A stretch of 3,133 nucleotides of DNA from a plasmid, in the NCBI RefSeq assembly GCF_057098645.1, contig NZ_JBXSPU010000007.1. The stretch is one strand, 5' to 3'. This document shows positions 1 through 3,133 of the stretch, piece by piece. Position 1 is the first letter of the stretch. Each line of letters begins with the position of its first letter. Below the pieces are notes generated by a model. It did not search any database. It had not been told where the DNA came from and saw only the letters and a list, made by a program, of their open reading frames with translations. The position numbers and the translations under genes were made by a program.

Positions 1-189
1 GATTGTATTGTTTATCGCATTACGCAGAGCAACCTCAATCATCTGGACAAGACAAAAAAAATCGCCAGACAGATCTTGGTAGGCAACGTATGCCCCAACC
101 TTTTCTTGATCAGTAGCGCACCCAAGAAATGTTTCATAGAAAGATAATCTTGGTACAGAAATTGAGCTAATTAAACTTGTTGTATCCAT
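1..189 (-). CDS. 5' portion (N-terminal 63 aa) of an Abi_2-family (AbiD/AbiF-like) abortive-infection protein; ORF runs off the left edge
   Basis: Hand translation of the minus strand from ATG at 189 gives MDTTSLISSISVPRLSFYETFLGCATDQEKVGAYVAYQDLSGDFFCLVQMIEVALRNAINNTI with no stop before position 1. An in-frame stop lies 3 codons upstream of this ATG. The motif IEVALRN matches the N-terminal 'iEvalR' block of Pfam Abi_2, recalled from memory. Not in the supplied ORF track because the ORF is open-ended. Confidence 0.5.
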   Translation of the reverse strand, partial: MDTTSLISSISVPRLSFYETFLGCATDQEKVGAYVAYQDLSGDFFCLVQMIEVALRNAINNTI

Positions 190-290
190 GAAAACTCACT
201 TATCTCTTTACTATGAATATTTTTCAGACTACCATTACAACATTCGAGGAGCAGGCGAACTACCGTTTTTCTGTGTACCTCTAGAGCGTA

Positions 291-338
291 AAATATAACA
301 AAAAAGCCCACTACAGAGTGGGCTTTTTTGTTATATTT
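291..338. terminator. Bidirectional rho-independent terminator: perfect 22-bp inverted repeat with 4-nt loop
   Basis: aaatataacaaaaaagcccact-acag-agtgggcttttttgttatattt. GC core gcccact/agtgggc flanked by an A-run on one side and a T-run on the other, so either strand yields stem plus U-tract. Confidence 0.75.
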
Positions 339-430
339 ATCTATATGAAACAACCAGTTATAGTTATTGTTTCATAATAAGAATTGAATACTCTTCACAA
401 TCCACAACATCAGAAAATACTTTGCTGCCA

Positions 431-458
431 ATTTACCATAACTCCCCTTACGCGCACC
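431..458 (-). other. cer-like Xer (XerC/XerD) multimer-resolution core site; accessory region probably extends to about 640
   Basis: The minus strand reads GGTGCGCGTAA-GGGGAG-TTATGGTAAAT. Compare the ColE1 cer arms GGTGCGTACAA / TTATGGTAAAT and the psi XerC arm GGTGCGCGCAA. A 14-bp palindrome tgcatagctatgca at 559-572, about 100 bp to the XerC side, could be an ArgR-box-like accessory element. Confidence 0.5.
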
Positions 459-647
459 GCTAAAACGCGCTGAACGCGATTCTGCCGCAAACACCGCAAA
501 AAGAGATGTTTTACCCAGTGAAAACCGGAAAAATGCGTCAGGACCGTTTTCAGCTCACTGCATAGCTATGCATGAAAGTGAATGGCGATCGGTTTGGGGC
601 CTTACGGCGTTCATACCGTCTGTTTTCGACAGTTTCTCTCCGGGAAG

Positions 648-971
648 CTAATCTGCCATAAGCCTGGATAACAGGGCCCGGTGATACTCCGTAATAGCGA
701 TCAGCACCTCCGCATACTCTCTGTCCCCGACACGCTTGCCGTCGATAAAGAGTTTTTTCTGTAACGCCCCCAGTCTCATAACTTCTTTCAGTACCCGATC
801 ATCAGTCAGTGAGTTAACTTTCTTACCGAGAGCTGCCGCCCGTAAAAAACCGGAAACGGTCTTGCCGCATTCAGCAGCCCTTTTTCTGATTTCCTGGTCT
901 TCTTCTGCCGTCAGACGAACAGGGCGACTGATAGCCCGCCTGCGCGTATTACTTCCACTTCGTTTTGTCAT
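648..971 (-). CDS. mbeC: MobC/MbeC-family ribbon-helix-helix mobilisation accessory protein (107 aa)
   Basis: The track ORF at 648..1061 contains RPVRLTAEEDQEIRKRAAECGKTVSGFLRAAAL, which fits the MobC-family signature RLT.eE..I..A..G.S.S..lR.AL. The likely start is ATG at 971 (MTKRSGSNTRRR...), with GGAG 9 nt upstream. The longer track ORF would run through the oriT inverted repeats. Stop is TAG at 648-650. Confidence 0.75.
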   Translation of the reverse strand: MTKRSGSNTRRRAISRPVRLTAEEDQEIRKRAAECGKTVSGFLRAAALGKKVNSLTDDRVLKEVMRLGALQKKLFIDGKRVGDREYAEVLIAITEYHRALLSRLMAD

Positions 972-994
972 AAAACATGGCTCCGTATCTGACA

Positions 995-1075
995 TGGGGT
1001 GTCGGGGCGAAGCCCTGACCAGGGTAATTGTAATAGCGCGCATGTATGCGCGGTATAACAATTACACATCCTGTC
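995..1075. other. ColE1-family oriT / bom (nic region) with inverted repeats
   Basis: ggggtgtcggggcgaagccctgaccagg closely matches the pBR322/ColE1 bom sequence gggtgtcggggcgcagccatgacccag. Imperfect inverted repeat gtcggggc-gaa-gccctgac. Hairpin cgcgca-tgta-tgcgcg at 1036-1051. Outer inverted repeat gtaattgt...acaattac. Lies immediately upstream of mbeC, the typical oriT-mobC arrangement. Confidence 0.6.
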
Positions 1076-1185
1076 CTGTCAGCAAGTTCGAATTACCGAC
1101 AAAGGCACGGCAGTTTTTTGGCAGTGACAGTATTGTCAGGCAGAAATGCCCGTCAAAGAGTCAGACGACAGAATACCGGCGGCAA

Positions 1186-1214
1186 AACTGTCGAAAAGTG
1201 GTACGCGATATAAT
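1186..1214 (+). promoter_or_regulatory. Candidate rop promoter: consensus -10 TATAAT at 1209-1214, weak -35
   Basis: gcgatataat with TATAAT at 1209-1214. Upstream hexamer is only a poor match (aactgt/ctgtcg). Position is appropriate for rop. Confidence 0.3.
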
Positions 1215-1255
1215 CACACGACGCAGATGACAGACAGAACGGAGAAAACAGAAAG

Positions 1256-1450
1256 ATGAACAAGCAGCAGCAAACCGCACTTAACATGGCAAAATTCATA
1301 AAAAGCCAGAGCCTGACGCTGCTCGAAAAACTGGACTCACTCGATGCTGATGCACAGGCCGCCATGTGTGAGAAACTGCACGAACTCGCAGAAGAACTCC
1401 AGAACAGCATACAGACACGCTTTGAATCGGAAAGTGGCACCGGGGAATAA
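1256..1450 (+). CDS. rop: Rop/Rom (repressor of primer; RNA I-RNA II pairing modulator), 64 aa
   Basis: MNKQQQTALNMAKFIKSQSLTLLEKLDSLDADAQAAMCEKLHELAEELQNSIQTRFESESGTGE aligns along its length with ColE1 Rop MTKQEKTALNMARFIRSQTLTLLEKLNELDADEQADICESLHDHADELYRSCLARF... Confidence 0.9.
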   Translation: MNKQQQTALNMAKFIKSQSLTLLEKLDSLDADAQAAMCEKLHELAEELQNSIQTRFESESGTGE

Positions 1451-2056
1451 CAGTGTTCCTACACCAGACAGGATGCAGAACGATATACCGGTGCGTAAGG
1501 AGAAAATACCACATAAGGCGCTCTTCCGCTTCCTCGCTCACTAACTCGCTACGCTCGGTCGTTCGGCTGCGGCGAGCGGTATCAGCTCACTCAAAGACGG
1601 TAATGAGGTTATCCACAGAATCAGGGGATAACGCCAAAAGAAACATGTGAGCAAAAAACAAGAACCCGAAAAAGGCCGCGCCGGTGGCGTTTTTCCATAG
1701 GCTCCGCCCCCCTGACGAGCATCACAAAAATCGACGCTCAAGTCAGAGGTGGCGAAACCCGACAGGACTATAAAGATACCAGGCGTTTCCCCCTGATGGC
1801 TCCCTCGTGCGCTCTCCTGTTCCTGCCTTTCGGTTTACCGGTGTCATTCCGCTGTTATGGCCGCGTTATCTCATTCCACGCCTGACACTCAGTTCCGGGT
1901 AGGCAGTTCGCTCCAAGCTGGACTGTATGCACGAACCCCCCGTTCAGTCCGACTACTGCGCCTTATCCGGTAACTATCGTCTTGAGTCCAACCCGGAAAG
2001 GCACGACTTATCGCCATTGGCAGCAGCCACTGGTAACTGATTTAGAGGAGTTAGTC

Positions 2057-2086
2057 TTGAAGTTACGTGCCAGTTAAGGCTAAACT
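2057..2086 (+). promoter_or_regulatory. RNA I promoter (-35 TTGAAG 2057-2062, -10 TAAACT 2081-2086)
   Basis: Corresponds position-for-position to the pBR322 ttgaag...ctacact and p15A ttgaag...ctaaact RNA I promoter. Confidence 0.55.
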
Positions 2087-2092
2087 GGAAGA

Positions 2093-2193
2093 ACAAGTTT
2101 TGGTGACTGCGCTCCTCTTAAGCCAGTTACCGAGGTTCAGAAACTTGCCGGTTGCTGAACCTTCGAAAAACCACCTTGCCGGGTGGTTTTTTC
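2093..2193 (+). ncRNA. RNA I (antisense copy-number control RNA)
   Basis: acaagttttggtgactgcgctcctcttaagccagttacc...aaccttcgaaaaaccaccttgccgggtggttttttcg parallels ColE1 RNA I ACAGUAUUUGGUAUCUGCGCUCUGCUGAAGCCAGUUACC...GGUGGUUUUUUUGUUU. Terminal hairpin ccacc-ttgccg-ggtgg followed by a U-tract. Confidence 0.75.
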
Positions 2194-2200
2194 GTTTTTA

Positions 2201-2229
2201 AGATTACGATGGGCGCGATATGAACTCAA
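2201..2229 (-). promoter_or_regulatory. RNA II promoter (-35 TTGAGT at 2229..2224, 17-bp spacer, -10 TAATCT at 2206..2201, minus strand)
   Basis: Matches pBR322 RNA II promoter ttgaga...gcgtaatct. Confidence 0.6.
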
Positions 2230-2299
2230 GGAAATCCGCAATTAAATTATAAAAGTTTGTGGATTAATGGAAAAACTGATGTGAATCAGCTATTTATCC

Positions 2300-2328
2300 T
2301 TAAGATTTGATGTCAGATATGGTATAAT
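2300..2328 (+). promoter_or_regulatory. Strong sigma70-type promoter with extended -10 (-35 TTAAGA 2300-2305, 17-bp spacer, TGgTATAAT 2320-2328), directed toward the Abi gene 3' end
   Basis: Consensus TATAAT preceded by TGn, with a 4/6 -35 at optimal spacing. Sits in an AT-rich tract divergent from the RNA II promoter. Predicted start about 2334-2336. Confidence 0.55.
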
Positions 2329-2401
2329 TAACCATTCAAATAGATGGAATAAAAAGTCAACGCTGCCATTAGAACGGCATAAGAAATAGAGGATTATGAA
2401 A

Positions 2402-2545
2402 ATGAATACTAAAGTTCTTTTTGTGAAAAAAGCCTTGAAATCAATTACTTGCGCAATTCTTTCGCTCTTACCGGCTTTAAGTCGCGCAGTAACAGAGTTA
2501 CGTAGCCTTTCGGCTGCGCGACTTAAAGCCGGTAAGAGCTTTTGA
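2402..2545 (+). CDS. Hypothetical small ORF (47 aa from ATG 2402; 49 aa from ATG 2396) running through the hairpin
   Basis: MNTKVLFVKKALKSITCAILSLLPALSRAVTELRSLSAARLKAGKSF. AGAGGA lies 8 nt upstream of ATG 2402. Against coding: the ORF contains both arms of a perfect 26-bp inverted repeat and its stop sits in the post-stem U-run. Confidence 0.2.
   Translation: MNTKVLFVKKALKSITCAILSLLPALSRAVTELRSLSAARLKAGKSF
2464..2539. repeat. Perfect 26-bp inverted repeat with 24-nt spacer (large hairpin/cruciform). Intrinsic terminator for the plus strand, and possible 3' stabiliser for Abi mRNA on the minus strand
   Basis: gctcttaccggctttaagtcgcgcag (2464-2489) is the exact reverse complement of ctgcgcgacttaaagccggtaagagc (2514-2539). 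The spacer taacagagttacgtagcctttcgg holds the mini-hairpin taac-aga-gtta and the palindrome tacgta. A U-run cttttgattg follows on the plus strand only. Confidence 0.9.
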
Positions 2546-2569
2546 TTGTATCACATTTTTCCTTAAAAG

Positions 2570-3133
2570 TCAACCGGCTACCTTAAGCTCCCTGCACTTA
2601 ATCCTCCCTATAATCCCCATAACATACTCTATCGTGCAGCGTTCATAAAAGCGCCTATCGTGCCCAATAAACTCAATAAGTTCCTTTTTCTCGTTAGAGA
2701 CGATACTCAAGGCATTCATTAAAAAATTGAACTCTTTCAACATATTATTTATGGCTTGACTATGCGACTTGCAGTGGTGTTTTTTCCAAATAGGCTCATG
2801 GTGAAAAAGTCGATTCCTAAACAAAAGAACTTTATGAAACTCGTCAAACAACGCTTTAACCTTCATATCCCCCCCACCCAAAGGATTCTTCGCATGAGGA
2901 AATGTTTTTGCCTTGTTCTCTGGAGTCCAGATGTAGCACGGCCTTTGCGTATCCCTATATGGGGCATCTAACATATAAACCCAAAAGCCAAAGGTTAGAC
3001 GGCAAATAACATCATCATCCGTATACCTTACGCCACACTCATCTAGCGCTTTTTGTTTCGCATTTAAAACAAGATCCTGAGATTTCTTTGTTTGAGGTAT
3101 AGAGTCGTACCAAGCAGGCCCATGATTAGCTTT
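2570..3133 (-). CDS. 3' portion (C-terminal 187 aa) of an Abi_2-family (AbiD/AbiF-like) abortive-infection protein; ORF open at the right edge
   Basis: The track ORF 2570..2974 extends in frame, with no stop found by hand translation, to 3133: ...KANHGPAWYDSIPQTKKSQDLVLNAKQKALDECGVRYTDDDVICRLTFGFWVYMLDAPY... It contains LTFGFW (Abi_2 middle motif 'lsFG') and LFRNRLFHHEPIW (Abi_2 C-terminal motif 'RN..AHH..lW'). Stop is TGA at 2570-2572. Confidence 0.7.
   Translation of the reverse strand, partial: KANHGPAWYDSIPQTKKSQDLVLNAKQKALDECGVRYTDDDVICRLTFGFWVYMLDAPYRDTQRPCYIWTPENKAKTFPHAKNPLGGGDMKVKALFDEFHKVLLFRNRLFHHEPIWKKHHCKSHSQAINNMLKEFNFLMNALSIVSNEKKELIEFIGHDRRFYERCTIEYVMGIIGRIKCRELKVAG

Follow-up and report, generated by a model that had tools for sequence, protein, structure and literature searches.

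The DNA analysed here, a stretch of 3,133 nucleotides (contig NZ_JBXSPU010000007.1, assembly GCF_057098645.1) that we call the window, is an entire circular Escherichia coli plasmid of an ordinary type that is already public many times. On a ColE1-type replicon it carries abi, a gene of the AbiD/AbiF type whose protein scores as the defence system PD-T4-5, and, upstream of abi on the opposite strand, a conserved stretch that is predicted to encode a small RNA (sRNA). The coordinates of all features are compiled in Table 1.

After rotation, the window matches two complete records of 3,133 bp, NZ_CP116992.1 and NZ_CP103519.1, with 0 mismatches; the record of NZ_CP103519.1 is circular, and a 120-nt sequence spanning the junction 3133|1 is internal to both. 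The window itself has no terminal direct repeat. In a megablast search against PLSDB, at least 12 records of exactly 3,133 bp aligned at 99.9–100% identity, each in two pieces, and thus represent the same circle opened at other points. The earlier note had suggested a probably near-complete circular plasmid, linearised inside an Abi_2 gene on the minus strand, of which only a short stretch was missing. Circularity and the point of opening were borne out, the two edge fragments being the N- and C-terminal parts of one AbiD/F-type (Abi_2 superfamily) gene, but the circle is complete: 0 bases are missing, and the protein is simply short for its family. The notion of an incomplete contig, whose edges would carry pieces of two different Abi genes or of one disrupted gene, has a negligible chance of being correct, as rotation makes the window identical to complete circular records in which the junction is internal and a single coding sequence (CDS) is annotated; two separate genes, a stop, or a frameshift between the fragments are thereby excluded.

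At the left edge, the minus-strand open reading frame (ORF) runs off position 1, ending ...QMIEVALRNAINNTI, while the frame at the right edge comprises 188 codons including the stop and reads KANHGPAWYDS...RLTFGFWVYML...FRNRLFHHEPIWKK...VAG*. Since the two pieces of 189 and 564 nt are both whole multiples of 3, the join is in phase, and connecting 3133 to 1 yields one continuous ORF of 250 codons without a stop at the junction (...AINNTI|KANHGPAWY...). In NZ_CP103519.1, abi is a single CDS (783..1535, WP_016249639.1) with a translation identical to the joined ORF, labelled "hypothetical protein" in every source. Many "partial" entries in the protein cluster of WP_016249639.1, on contigs of ~3.2 kb, are the same linearisation artefact. 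Among 5,426 complete E. coli genomes, 27 contain abi with its upstream segment; the carrier is almost invariably a plasmid of ~3.13 kb, and several records are opened elsewhere within the same gene.

Table 1. Features of the window, with positions on the 3,133-nucleotide stretch.
Feature	Position	Strand	Details and basis
abi, 5′ part	1..189	−	ATG 189..187; codons 1-63, MDTTS...CLVQMIEVALRNAINNTI (ALRNAINNTI end); contiguous with 3133 in NZ_CP103519.1 and NZ_CP116992.1
abi, 3′ part	2570..3133	−	Codons 64-250 and stop 2572..2570; contains HEPN motif R169-N-R-L-F-H174
Predicted sRNA promoter	207..235	+	-35 TTTACT 207-212, 17-nt spacer, -10 TACCAT 230-235; own scan
Conserved sRNA, ~89 nt, transcribed away from abi	242..330	+	Predicted ends; conservation, covariation, covariance model
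Parts of the sRNA	5′ hairpin 246-281; terminator stem 306-323; T-run 324-329	+	Hairpin of 13 bp with conserved bulges; single-stranded UAGAGCGUAAA between hairpin and terminator
22-nt perfect palindrome, predicted terminator	291..338	both	Bidirectional in the window plasmid
mobA, NikA-like ribbon-helix-helix relaxosome accessory protein, 107 aa	648..971	−	NCBIfam MobA 112 bits (cutoff 80); Pfam NikA-like 65.5 bits; PGAP
rop (Rom), modulator of the RNAI/RNAII kissing complex	1256..1450	+	Pfam Rop PF01815, 113.9 bits (cutoff 25), model 1-57 of 57; also annotated
ColE1-type origin region, RNAII primer template	1640..2200 (approximate)	−	Boundaries inferred from RNAI position and pBR322 layout
RNAI, antisense copy-number regulator	2095..2195	+	Rfam RF00106, 95.9 bits (gathering score 47), E 4.9e-18, full length
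Plasmid-family-specific segment	2300..2545	+	Promoter-like 2300-2328; 49-codon ORF 2396-2545; 26-bp perfect inverted repeat 2464-2489/2514-2539 with 24-nt spacer, then TTTT

The joined protein has 250 residues and is predicted to be soluble and all-helical. Because its match to the Pfam family Abi_2 is partial and below threshold, where the earlier note had proposed to look for a full match after joining, the family assignment rests on four other lines of evidence. First, the PADLOC model of PD-T4-5 (PDLC04038) matches residues 4-229 with 102.4 bits (E 6.6e-30) over positions 8-255 of 309, leaving the last ~54 positions of the model unmatched. PD-T4-5 is a plasmid-borne single-gene system of E. 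coli, a distant relative of AbiF/D with an Abi-type defence (Vassallo et al, 2022; PMC9519451). Second, a homologue search with phmmer returned 63 relatives, among them an "Abi family protein [Proteus mirabilis]" (2e-21) and several with PF07751; within an alignment of 44 homologues, PF07751 was found in 32 (best E 1.4e-11). Third, tblastn aligns ~90% of the protein, at 23–28% identity, with hundreds of plasmid genes annotated as "Abi family protein". Fourth, a fold search identified PbAbiF (8VZ6) as the nearest solved structural relative at ~20% sequence identity, while a sequence profile search of the PDB gave a marginal match to 8vz6 only (E 0.08). In the HEPN motif R-phi-x3-H, residues R169, N170, R171, and H174 are invariant in the 44 sequences, and the stretch R-N-R-L-F-H aligns with R210/H215 of PbAbiF, mutation of which inactivates that protein (PMC12373285). 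By these models, the protein classifies as a short member of the AbiD/F–PD-T4-5 HEPN group rather than as a curated Pfam Abi_2 match.

The predicted sRNA lies 53 nt upstream of the abi ATG on the opposite strand, in a stretch (330..204) that retains 72–85% nucleotide identity among loci whose Abi proteins are only 53–67% identical and which reside on different replicons (ColE1, Rep3, RepL, and a Lonepinella chromosome). In total, the sRNA was found in 12 loci with proteins only 44–67% identical. All present the same order on the strand opposite abi, namely a sigma-70-like promoter, CGAGGAGCAGSCGAAC, a variable linker, GUUUUnyUGUGUACCUyUAGArYGUAAA, and a GC-rich hairpin with a T-run. The promoter is recognisable on the sRNA strand in 10 of the 12 loci, and the distance from the end of its -10 box to the conserved CGAGGAG amounts to 8–14 nt in nine loci and to 33 nt in the truncated L172. 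A good T-run is seen on the sRNA strand in every locus but on the abi strand only in some; in L173, L176, and L178, it is confined to the sRNA strand. In the window plasmid, the palindrome is predicted to terminate the sRNA on the plus strand and to insulate abi from mobA transcription on the minus strand.

The two conserved blocks pair with each other, the variable linker forming the loop, and RNAalifold recovers hairpin and terminator unguided. Of the hairpin cells in the alignment, 99.2% are paired, with compensatory changes in 4 of 13 pairs, and slid controls fall to 45–70%. The structure is strand-specific: 129 of 130 cells pair on the plus strand compared to 100 of 130 on the abi strand, because 29 cells are G·U, including two at invariant positions, and pair on one strand only. 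Likewise, minimum free energies range from -10.4 to -13.7 kcal/mol on the sRNA strand versus -2.4 to -11.0 kcal/mol on the abi strand, and the whole sRNA folds with z = -8.2. Promoter, G·U asymmetry, and terminator T-run thus agree that the RNA-coding strand is the one opposite abi. A covariance model of the sRNA matches the window at 242-333 with 95.6 bits and, run on 100 loci, finds matches only beside the close protein clade.

The same block might instead control abi at the DNA level, as a promoter combined with an operator to which a regulator of the host or plasmid binds. In favour of this are an 8-bp palindrome, CTCTAGAG, and, on the abi strand, a TTTAC(G/A) resembling a -35 box, and the sRNA transcript is itself a prediction from sequence. 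We consider this reading improbable: no locus offers a -10 box at usable distance from TTTACG, and promoter and T-run terminator are conserved on the same strand. Moreover, an operator would not account for blocks that are complementary across a loop of variable length, with the compensatory changes and one-sided G·U pairs described above.

Other candidates at this site were tried and rejected. A peptide encoded by the sRNA would lack a start codon after GAGGAG, and the overlapping plus-strand ORF of 36 codons (188-298) starts upstream of the predicted transcription start, is unconserved, and has no Pfam match. Read as an abi-strand promoter (TTTACG-17-AAAACG; GTTCGG-n-TAnnnT), the two conserved blocks A and B show inconsistent spacing and no usable -10, and their pairing on the abi strand is weaker than on the sRNA strand. 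Further copies of the sRNA were sought by a pattern search of viral_contigs, with 0 hits, and by blastn against PLSDB, which returned only the window plasmid family and one chance match of 32 nt. Sub-threshold Rfam matches near the sRNA are attenuator- or miRNA-like and driven by the terminator. As far as these searches show, within Rfam and the literature covered, a divergent sRNA partner of this kind is undescribed.

How could such an RNA act on abi? Proteins of the AbiD/F group are now regarded as partners of a short upstream RNA, and in AbiF itself, a HEPN RNase toxin, a bulged hairpin of a non-coding RNA (ncRNA) occludes the active site, the pair being a type III toxin–antitoxin system (PMC12373285; PMC12737573; PMC13064643). 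By analogy, the window Abi protein would be a dimeric HEPN RNase toxin. An abundant sRNA would restrain the RNase, most likely by binding the protein via the conserved bulged hairpin, as AbiFr/RCd22 do with AbiF, and promoter occlusion or antisense overlap may add to the restraint. Phage infection or plasmid loss could then upset the balance of RNA and protein and release the RNase, which would abort the infection and, as a side effect, stabilise the plasmid. Recognition of the sRNA by the protein is favoured because its unpaired nucleotides are near-invariant. We assign a probability of about 0.7 to the reading as a whole, in which a complete ColE1-type plasmid carries an AbiD/AbiF-type HEPN gene scoring as PD-T4-5 that forms, together with its conserved divergent sRNA, an RNA–protein toxin–antitoxin or abortive-infection module.

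Several points weigh against it. Against PF07751, the joined protein reaches 19.9 bits (cutoff 25.6; E 9.8e-4), with model positions 37-118 of 184 aligned to residues 33-102, a range extending across the junction; Pfam searches with each edge fragment alone and an NCBIfam search with the joined protein gave no match. Compared by model and ORF length, the protein is 64 residues shorter than the PD-T4-5 reference (ECOR34, RCQ99930.1; ORF 4695-5639, 945 bp, about 314 aa; PMC9519451), and the region cloned for PD-T4-5 consists of the ORF plus 184 bp upstream and is listed with a single CDS (PMC9519451). The ncRNAs of characterised AbiF systems all lie on the same strand as the toxin gene, and the window sRNA lies on the opposite one. 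Neither the sRNA nor the window contains relevant tandem repeats. Rfam scans with the whole window (E ≤ 1) and with a 151-nt query (E ≤ 10) revealed no family match for the sRNA, RF03085 included. The absence of RF03085 says little, because Rfam gathering scans of 20 distant loci gave no abiF match either. With opposite strand, no tandem repeats, and no RF03085 match, however, homology with AbiFr is unsupported, and binding to the protein is conjecture. The shuffle control used to assess covariation tends to be generous when sequences are related, only 10 sequences were available, and the ends of the sRNA as well as the start site and promoter of abi are predictions from sequence. Finally, from the terminator to the ATG, the abi strand showed no match to the sigma-70 consensus.

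This last point, together with the abi start codon lying only 18 nt from the -35 box of the sRNA, makes promoter occlusion or antisense overlap almost unavoidable, and a purely cis-acting role is therefore the main rival. Here, the sRNA would never touch the protein and would act, as in type I systems or with CopA/RNAI, by interfering with transcription or by antisense pairing: its transcription would occlude or collide with the abi promoter, or it would pair with abi mRNA arising from upstream or mobA read-through and cause cleavage or a translational block. Indeed, the abi transcription start must fall within or beyond the sRNA promoter. In L173, L176, and L178, the hairpin lacks a T-run on the abi strand, so transcription of upstream genes should continue into abi and yield RNA complementary to the sRNA over its full length. 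In having a promoter and a terminator of its own, the sRNA further resembles classical antisense regulators and differs from co-transcribed type III antitoxins (PMC12373285). Antisense pairs, however, are complementary by construction and impose no constraint on sequence, whereas the bulges and the 3′ single strand (GUA, UAGAnnGUAAA) are near-invariant across proteins of 44–67% identity, which suggests recognition by a conserved partner; in addition, the closest relative of solved structure is bound to an RNA hairpin with bulges (8VZ6). On balance, we regard an exclusively cis-acting sRNA as unlikely, if clearly the strongest competitor of the RNA–protein module.

A different objection concerns the role of abi, which might be primarily a plasmid-addiction module acting by post-segregational killing, or an inactive remnant, without a part in phage defence. 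The plasmid is small, high-copy, and without a partition system, and type III and other toxin–antitoxin systems are common on small E. coli plasmids (PMC6807383); the protein is also shorter than the PD-T4-5 reference and uniformly labelled "hypothetical". Yet the catalytic motif and 16 positions are invariant across the 44 homologues, the abi coding sequence is almost unchanged among plasmid variants, and the closest experimentally tested relative confers Abi defence against T4 (PMC9519451). We therefore rate addiction or decay as the sole explanation as rather unlikely. Moreover, addiction and defence are not mutually exclusive, and for the RNA–protein module both anti-phage function and plasmid stabilisation are plausible.

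Two further sub-clades, whose proteins are ~29–36% identical to the window protein, have unrelated upstream sequences of the same build. In a marine/Vibrio clade, upstream regions are 74–83% identical compared to 64–68% nucleotide identity in the coding sequence. A freshwater clade shows the trend more weakly (64–76% upstream vs 62–68% coding), with one closely related pair reversed. On the opposite strand, both have a consensus promoter, which in one clade reads TTGACA-18-CATAAT in 5 of 5 loci, followed by a structured RNA. The freshwater clade carries a terminator T-run on the opposite strand; that of the marine/Vibrio clade is interrupted (ACUUGUUU) and less convincing. At loci L113 and L115-L118 (~60-150 nt upstream of the abi homologue) and at L010 and L096-L105, such distant sub-clades each have a conserved, predicted divergent small-RNA gene of their own. 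In a distant-clade example, TTGACA-18-CATAAT precedes an RNA of ~65 nt (UAAGCUUUUAGAGAUCCGUGAAAGCGCCUCU...) and a terminator, with sequences unrelated to the window sRNA. Tentatively, and at somewhat less than even odds, short (230–260 aa) PD-T4-5-like HEPN Abi proteins of Proteobacteria may be two-component systems with a divergent, independently transcribed structured sRNA. Such RNAs would constitute an undescribed family of at least three sequence types in three protein sub-clades and serve as antitoxin or sensor of the RNase.

Around this cassette, the backbone is that of a ColE1-like plasmid, as the earlier note had recognised and as the RNAI and Rop scores (Table 1) establish. The order rop, origin, and RNAI, with RNAII transcribed leftwards, corresponds to the pBR322 layout. 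In megablast, window 424..2214 matches at least 5,000 ColE1-type plasmids at 80–95% identity. The plasmid has neither a relaxase gene nor a colicin or immunity gene and lacks the mobB, mobC, and mobD relaxase set; its mobilisation, as judged from gene content, would need a relaxase in trans. A bom-like sequence near 1003, GGGTGTCGGGGCG, is probably a bom/oriT site. MOB-suite labels the plasmid "mobilizable, relaxase MOBF", though only the NikA-like accessory protein is encoded. Within the origin, PGAP annotates a 37-codon ORF (1927-2040, plus strand; WP_071790583.1) as "replication initiation protein", the only such annotation of the plasmid. As ColE1 plasmids replicate independently of a Rep protein, the label has probably been carried over from an earlier mis-annotation.

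Other small plasmids share only window 424..2214 and carry NERD or NYN and helix-turn-helix (HTH) genes instead of abi, which delimits the cargo segment to about 2215..3133 plus 1..423; abi is its only large ORF. Same-backbone plasmids (90–93% identity over window 424-2214; e.g. NZ_CP054944.1 and NZ_CP149224.1) have a NERD-domain protein, or NYN-domain and HTH proteins, as cargo at the same site. The position thus resembles one at which putative defence or nuclease genes are exchanged. The capture of Abi-like, restriction–modification, and toxin–antitoxin genes by ColE1 plasmids is known from Enterobacteriaceae (PMC5864857; PMC6807383). Two family members (L179 and L180; 94.8–97% identical overall) differ from the window almost exclusively in rop, ori, and the mobA–rop spacer (window 972-2197). 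Plasmid variants have 52–108 differing sites in ori and 21–24 in rop, compared to 2–3 in the abi coding sequence and 0 in the sRNA and its promoter. Since the cassette of abi and sRNA is nearly invariant while rop and ori diverge, the backbone is best described as a mosaic, with ColE1 replicons recombining around a fixed cargo.

Further observations concern the flanks and structural variants. In the AT-rich spacer between the backbone boundary (~424) and the terminator, a 7-bp stem-loop, GAAACAA-N13-TTGTTTC (346-372, minus strand), is unconserved in relatives. The position of mobA just upstream of sRNA and abi is occupied, on the abi strand, by genes for 92–97-residue proteins in L003 (1659-1949), L173 (1038-1325), L176 (1076-1363), and L178 (859-1137), a pattern seen in most related small plasmids; these proteins give weak HTH_17/AlpA-like matches. 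In the E. coli blood isolate strain 44 from Houston (L183; NZ_CM132951.1 3378384-3383049), the entire plasmid is chromosomal, adjoins a truncated wcaM, and is flanked by two directly oriented IS26, an arrangement that indicates an IS26-mediated cointegrate. A 4,750-bp variant (L181; NZ_CP148481.1) has a duplicated replicon segment with two copies each of rop, the ori ORF, and a 51-aa ORF, and may represent a partial dimer or an assembly artefact.

According to the earlier note, the defence gene and a small-transcript module would be the only cargo. The gene was confirmed, and the small-transcript unit travelling with abi is the predicted divergent sRNA rather than the small ORF downstream, but "only" does not hold, as the cargo also includes the segment with the 26-bp inverted repeat and small ORF. 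The region 2200-2572 occurs only in the window plasmid family. It is absent from plasmids with a 67%-identical abi (L003-L006), in which the abi stop codon lies 67 bp from the end of RNAI, and the 49-codon ORF has no homologues outside the plasmid family. In a metagenomic member of the family (L182, 3063-3138), the 24-nt spacer is inverted between repeat arms that are 100% identical, consistent with either an invertible flip-flop palindrome or a template-switch product. Because this inversion rewrites the annotated 47/49-residue "hypothetical protein" (WP_152918943.1), the ORF is probably not coding. On the same three grounds, namely its absence from L003-L006, the lack of outside homologues, and the rewriting by inversion, small ORF and hairpin were rejected as partner of abi, and by comparison among relatives the segment is not an obligate partner. 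It contains two promoter-like sites. One, on the plus strand (2300-2328; TTAAGA-17-TATAAT with TG), is accompanied by a good Shine–Dalgarno sequence before ATG 2396; the other, on the minus strand (2573..2545; TTGACT-17-TACAAT), extends over the abi stop codon and is directed back into the palindrome. Such an arrangement is reminiscent of a type I toxin–antitoxin or convergent-terminator unit.

A plasmid opened inside a gene is an ordinary finding, and its value lies chiefly in cautioning annotators. Public databases often list abi in fragments, as "partial hypothetical proteins", since assemblers open the circle within it, and the gene is still called "hypothetical" even though models of defence systems detect it. 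With its protein, a known defence family gains a new, short member. Of more use is the conserved divergent sRNA. The AbiD/F–Cas13 lineage is now understood as RNA-bound HEPN RNases. If our reading is correct, a proteobacterial branch with the RNA promoter on the opposite strand would have kept the RNA–protein partnership while its gene architecture changed, which would represent a new architectural variant of RNA–protein (type III-like) toxin–antitoxin immunity and imply that PD-T4-5 is not a single-gene system. It would further provide an easily tested 1.1-kb E. coli module for the restraint of an RNase by RNA and for the releasing phage signal. It would also speak for including the upstream non-coding DNA when "single-gene" defence systems such as PD-T4-5 are cloned and modelled.

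Among known systems, PD-T4-5 resembles the window module by its PADLOC model match and as a single protein gene on an E. coli plasmid; no RNA partner is reported for it. For P0060 (314 aa), no accession ties the protein to RCQ99930.1. A type I toxin–antitoxin system was rejected, as it needs a small hydrophobic peptide toxin and the partner here is a large, predicted soluble and all-helical protein. In ToxIN, ToxI is a tandem array processed by the toxin, whereas the window has no such repeats and its putative toxin belongs to a different fold family; other toxin–antitoxin and defence cargo on small ColE1-like plasmids forms a comparison class. ColE1 and pBR322 share the arrangement of RNAI, rop, and origin, the difference being that the window plasmid has only the NikA-like MobA. 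Lactococcal AbiD, AbiD1, and AbiF are proteins of Firmicutes with about 340–370 residues. Like the window protein, these members of the PF07751 group are plasmid-borne HEPN Abi proteins; their genes are weakly transcribed, and tolerance or function depends on conserved non-coding DNA upstream (PMC13064643). The window protein differs by scoring below the PF07751 gathering score. In lactococci, too, upstream identity exceeds gene identity (PMC12373285; PMC12737573; PMC13064643). AbiF–AbiFr and RCd22–AbiFCd (8VZ6; PMC12373285; PMC12737573) likewise have a structured ncRNA gene adjoining the toxin gene upstream. There, however, RNA and toxin gene share a strand and are transcribed together, a terminator preceding the toxin ORF, whereas the window RNA is predicted to be transcribed from the opposite strand with its own promoter and terminator.

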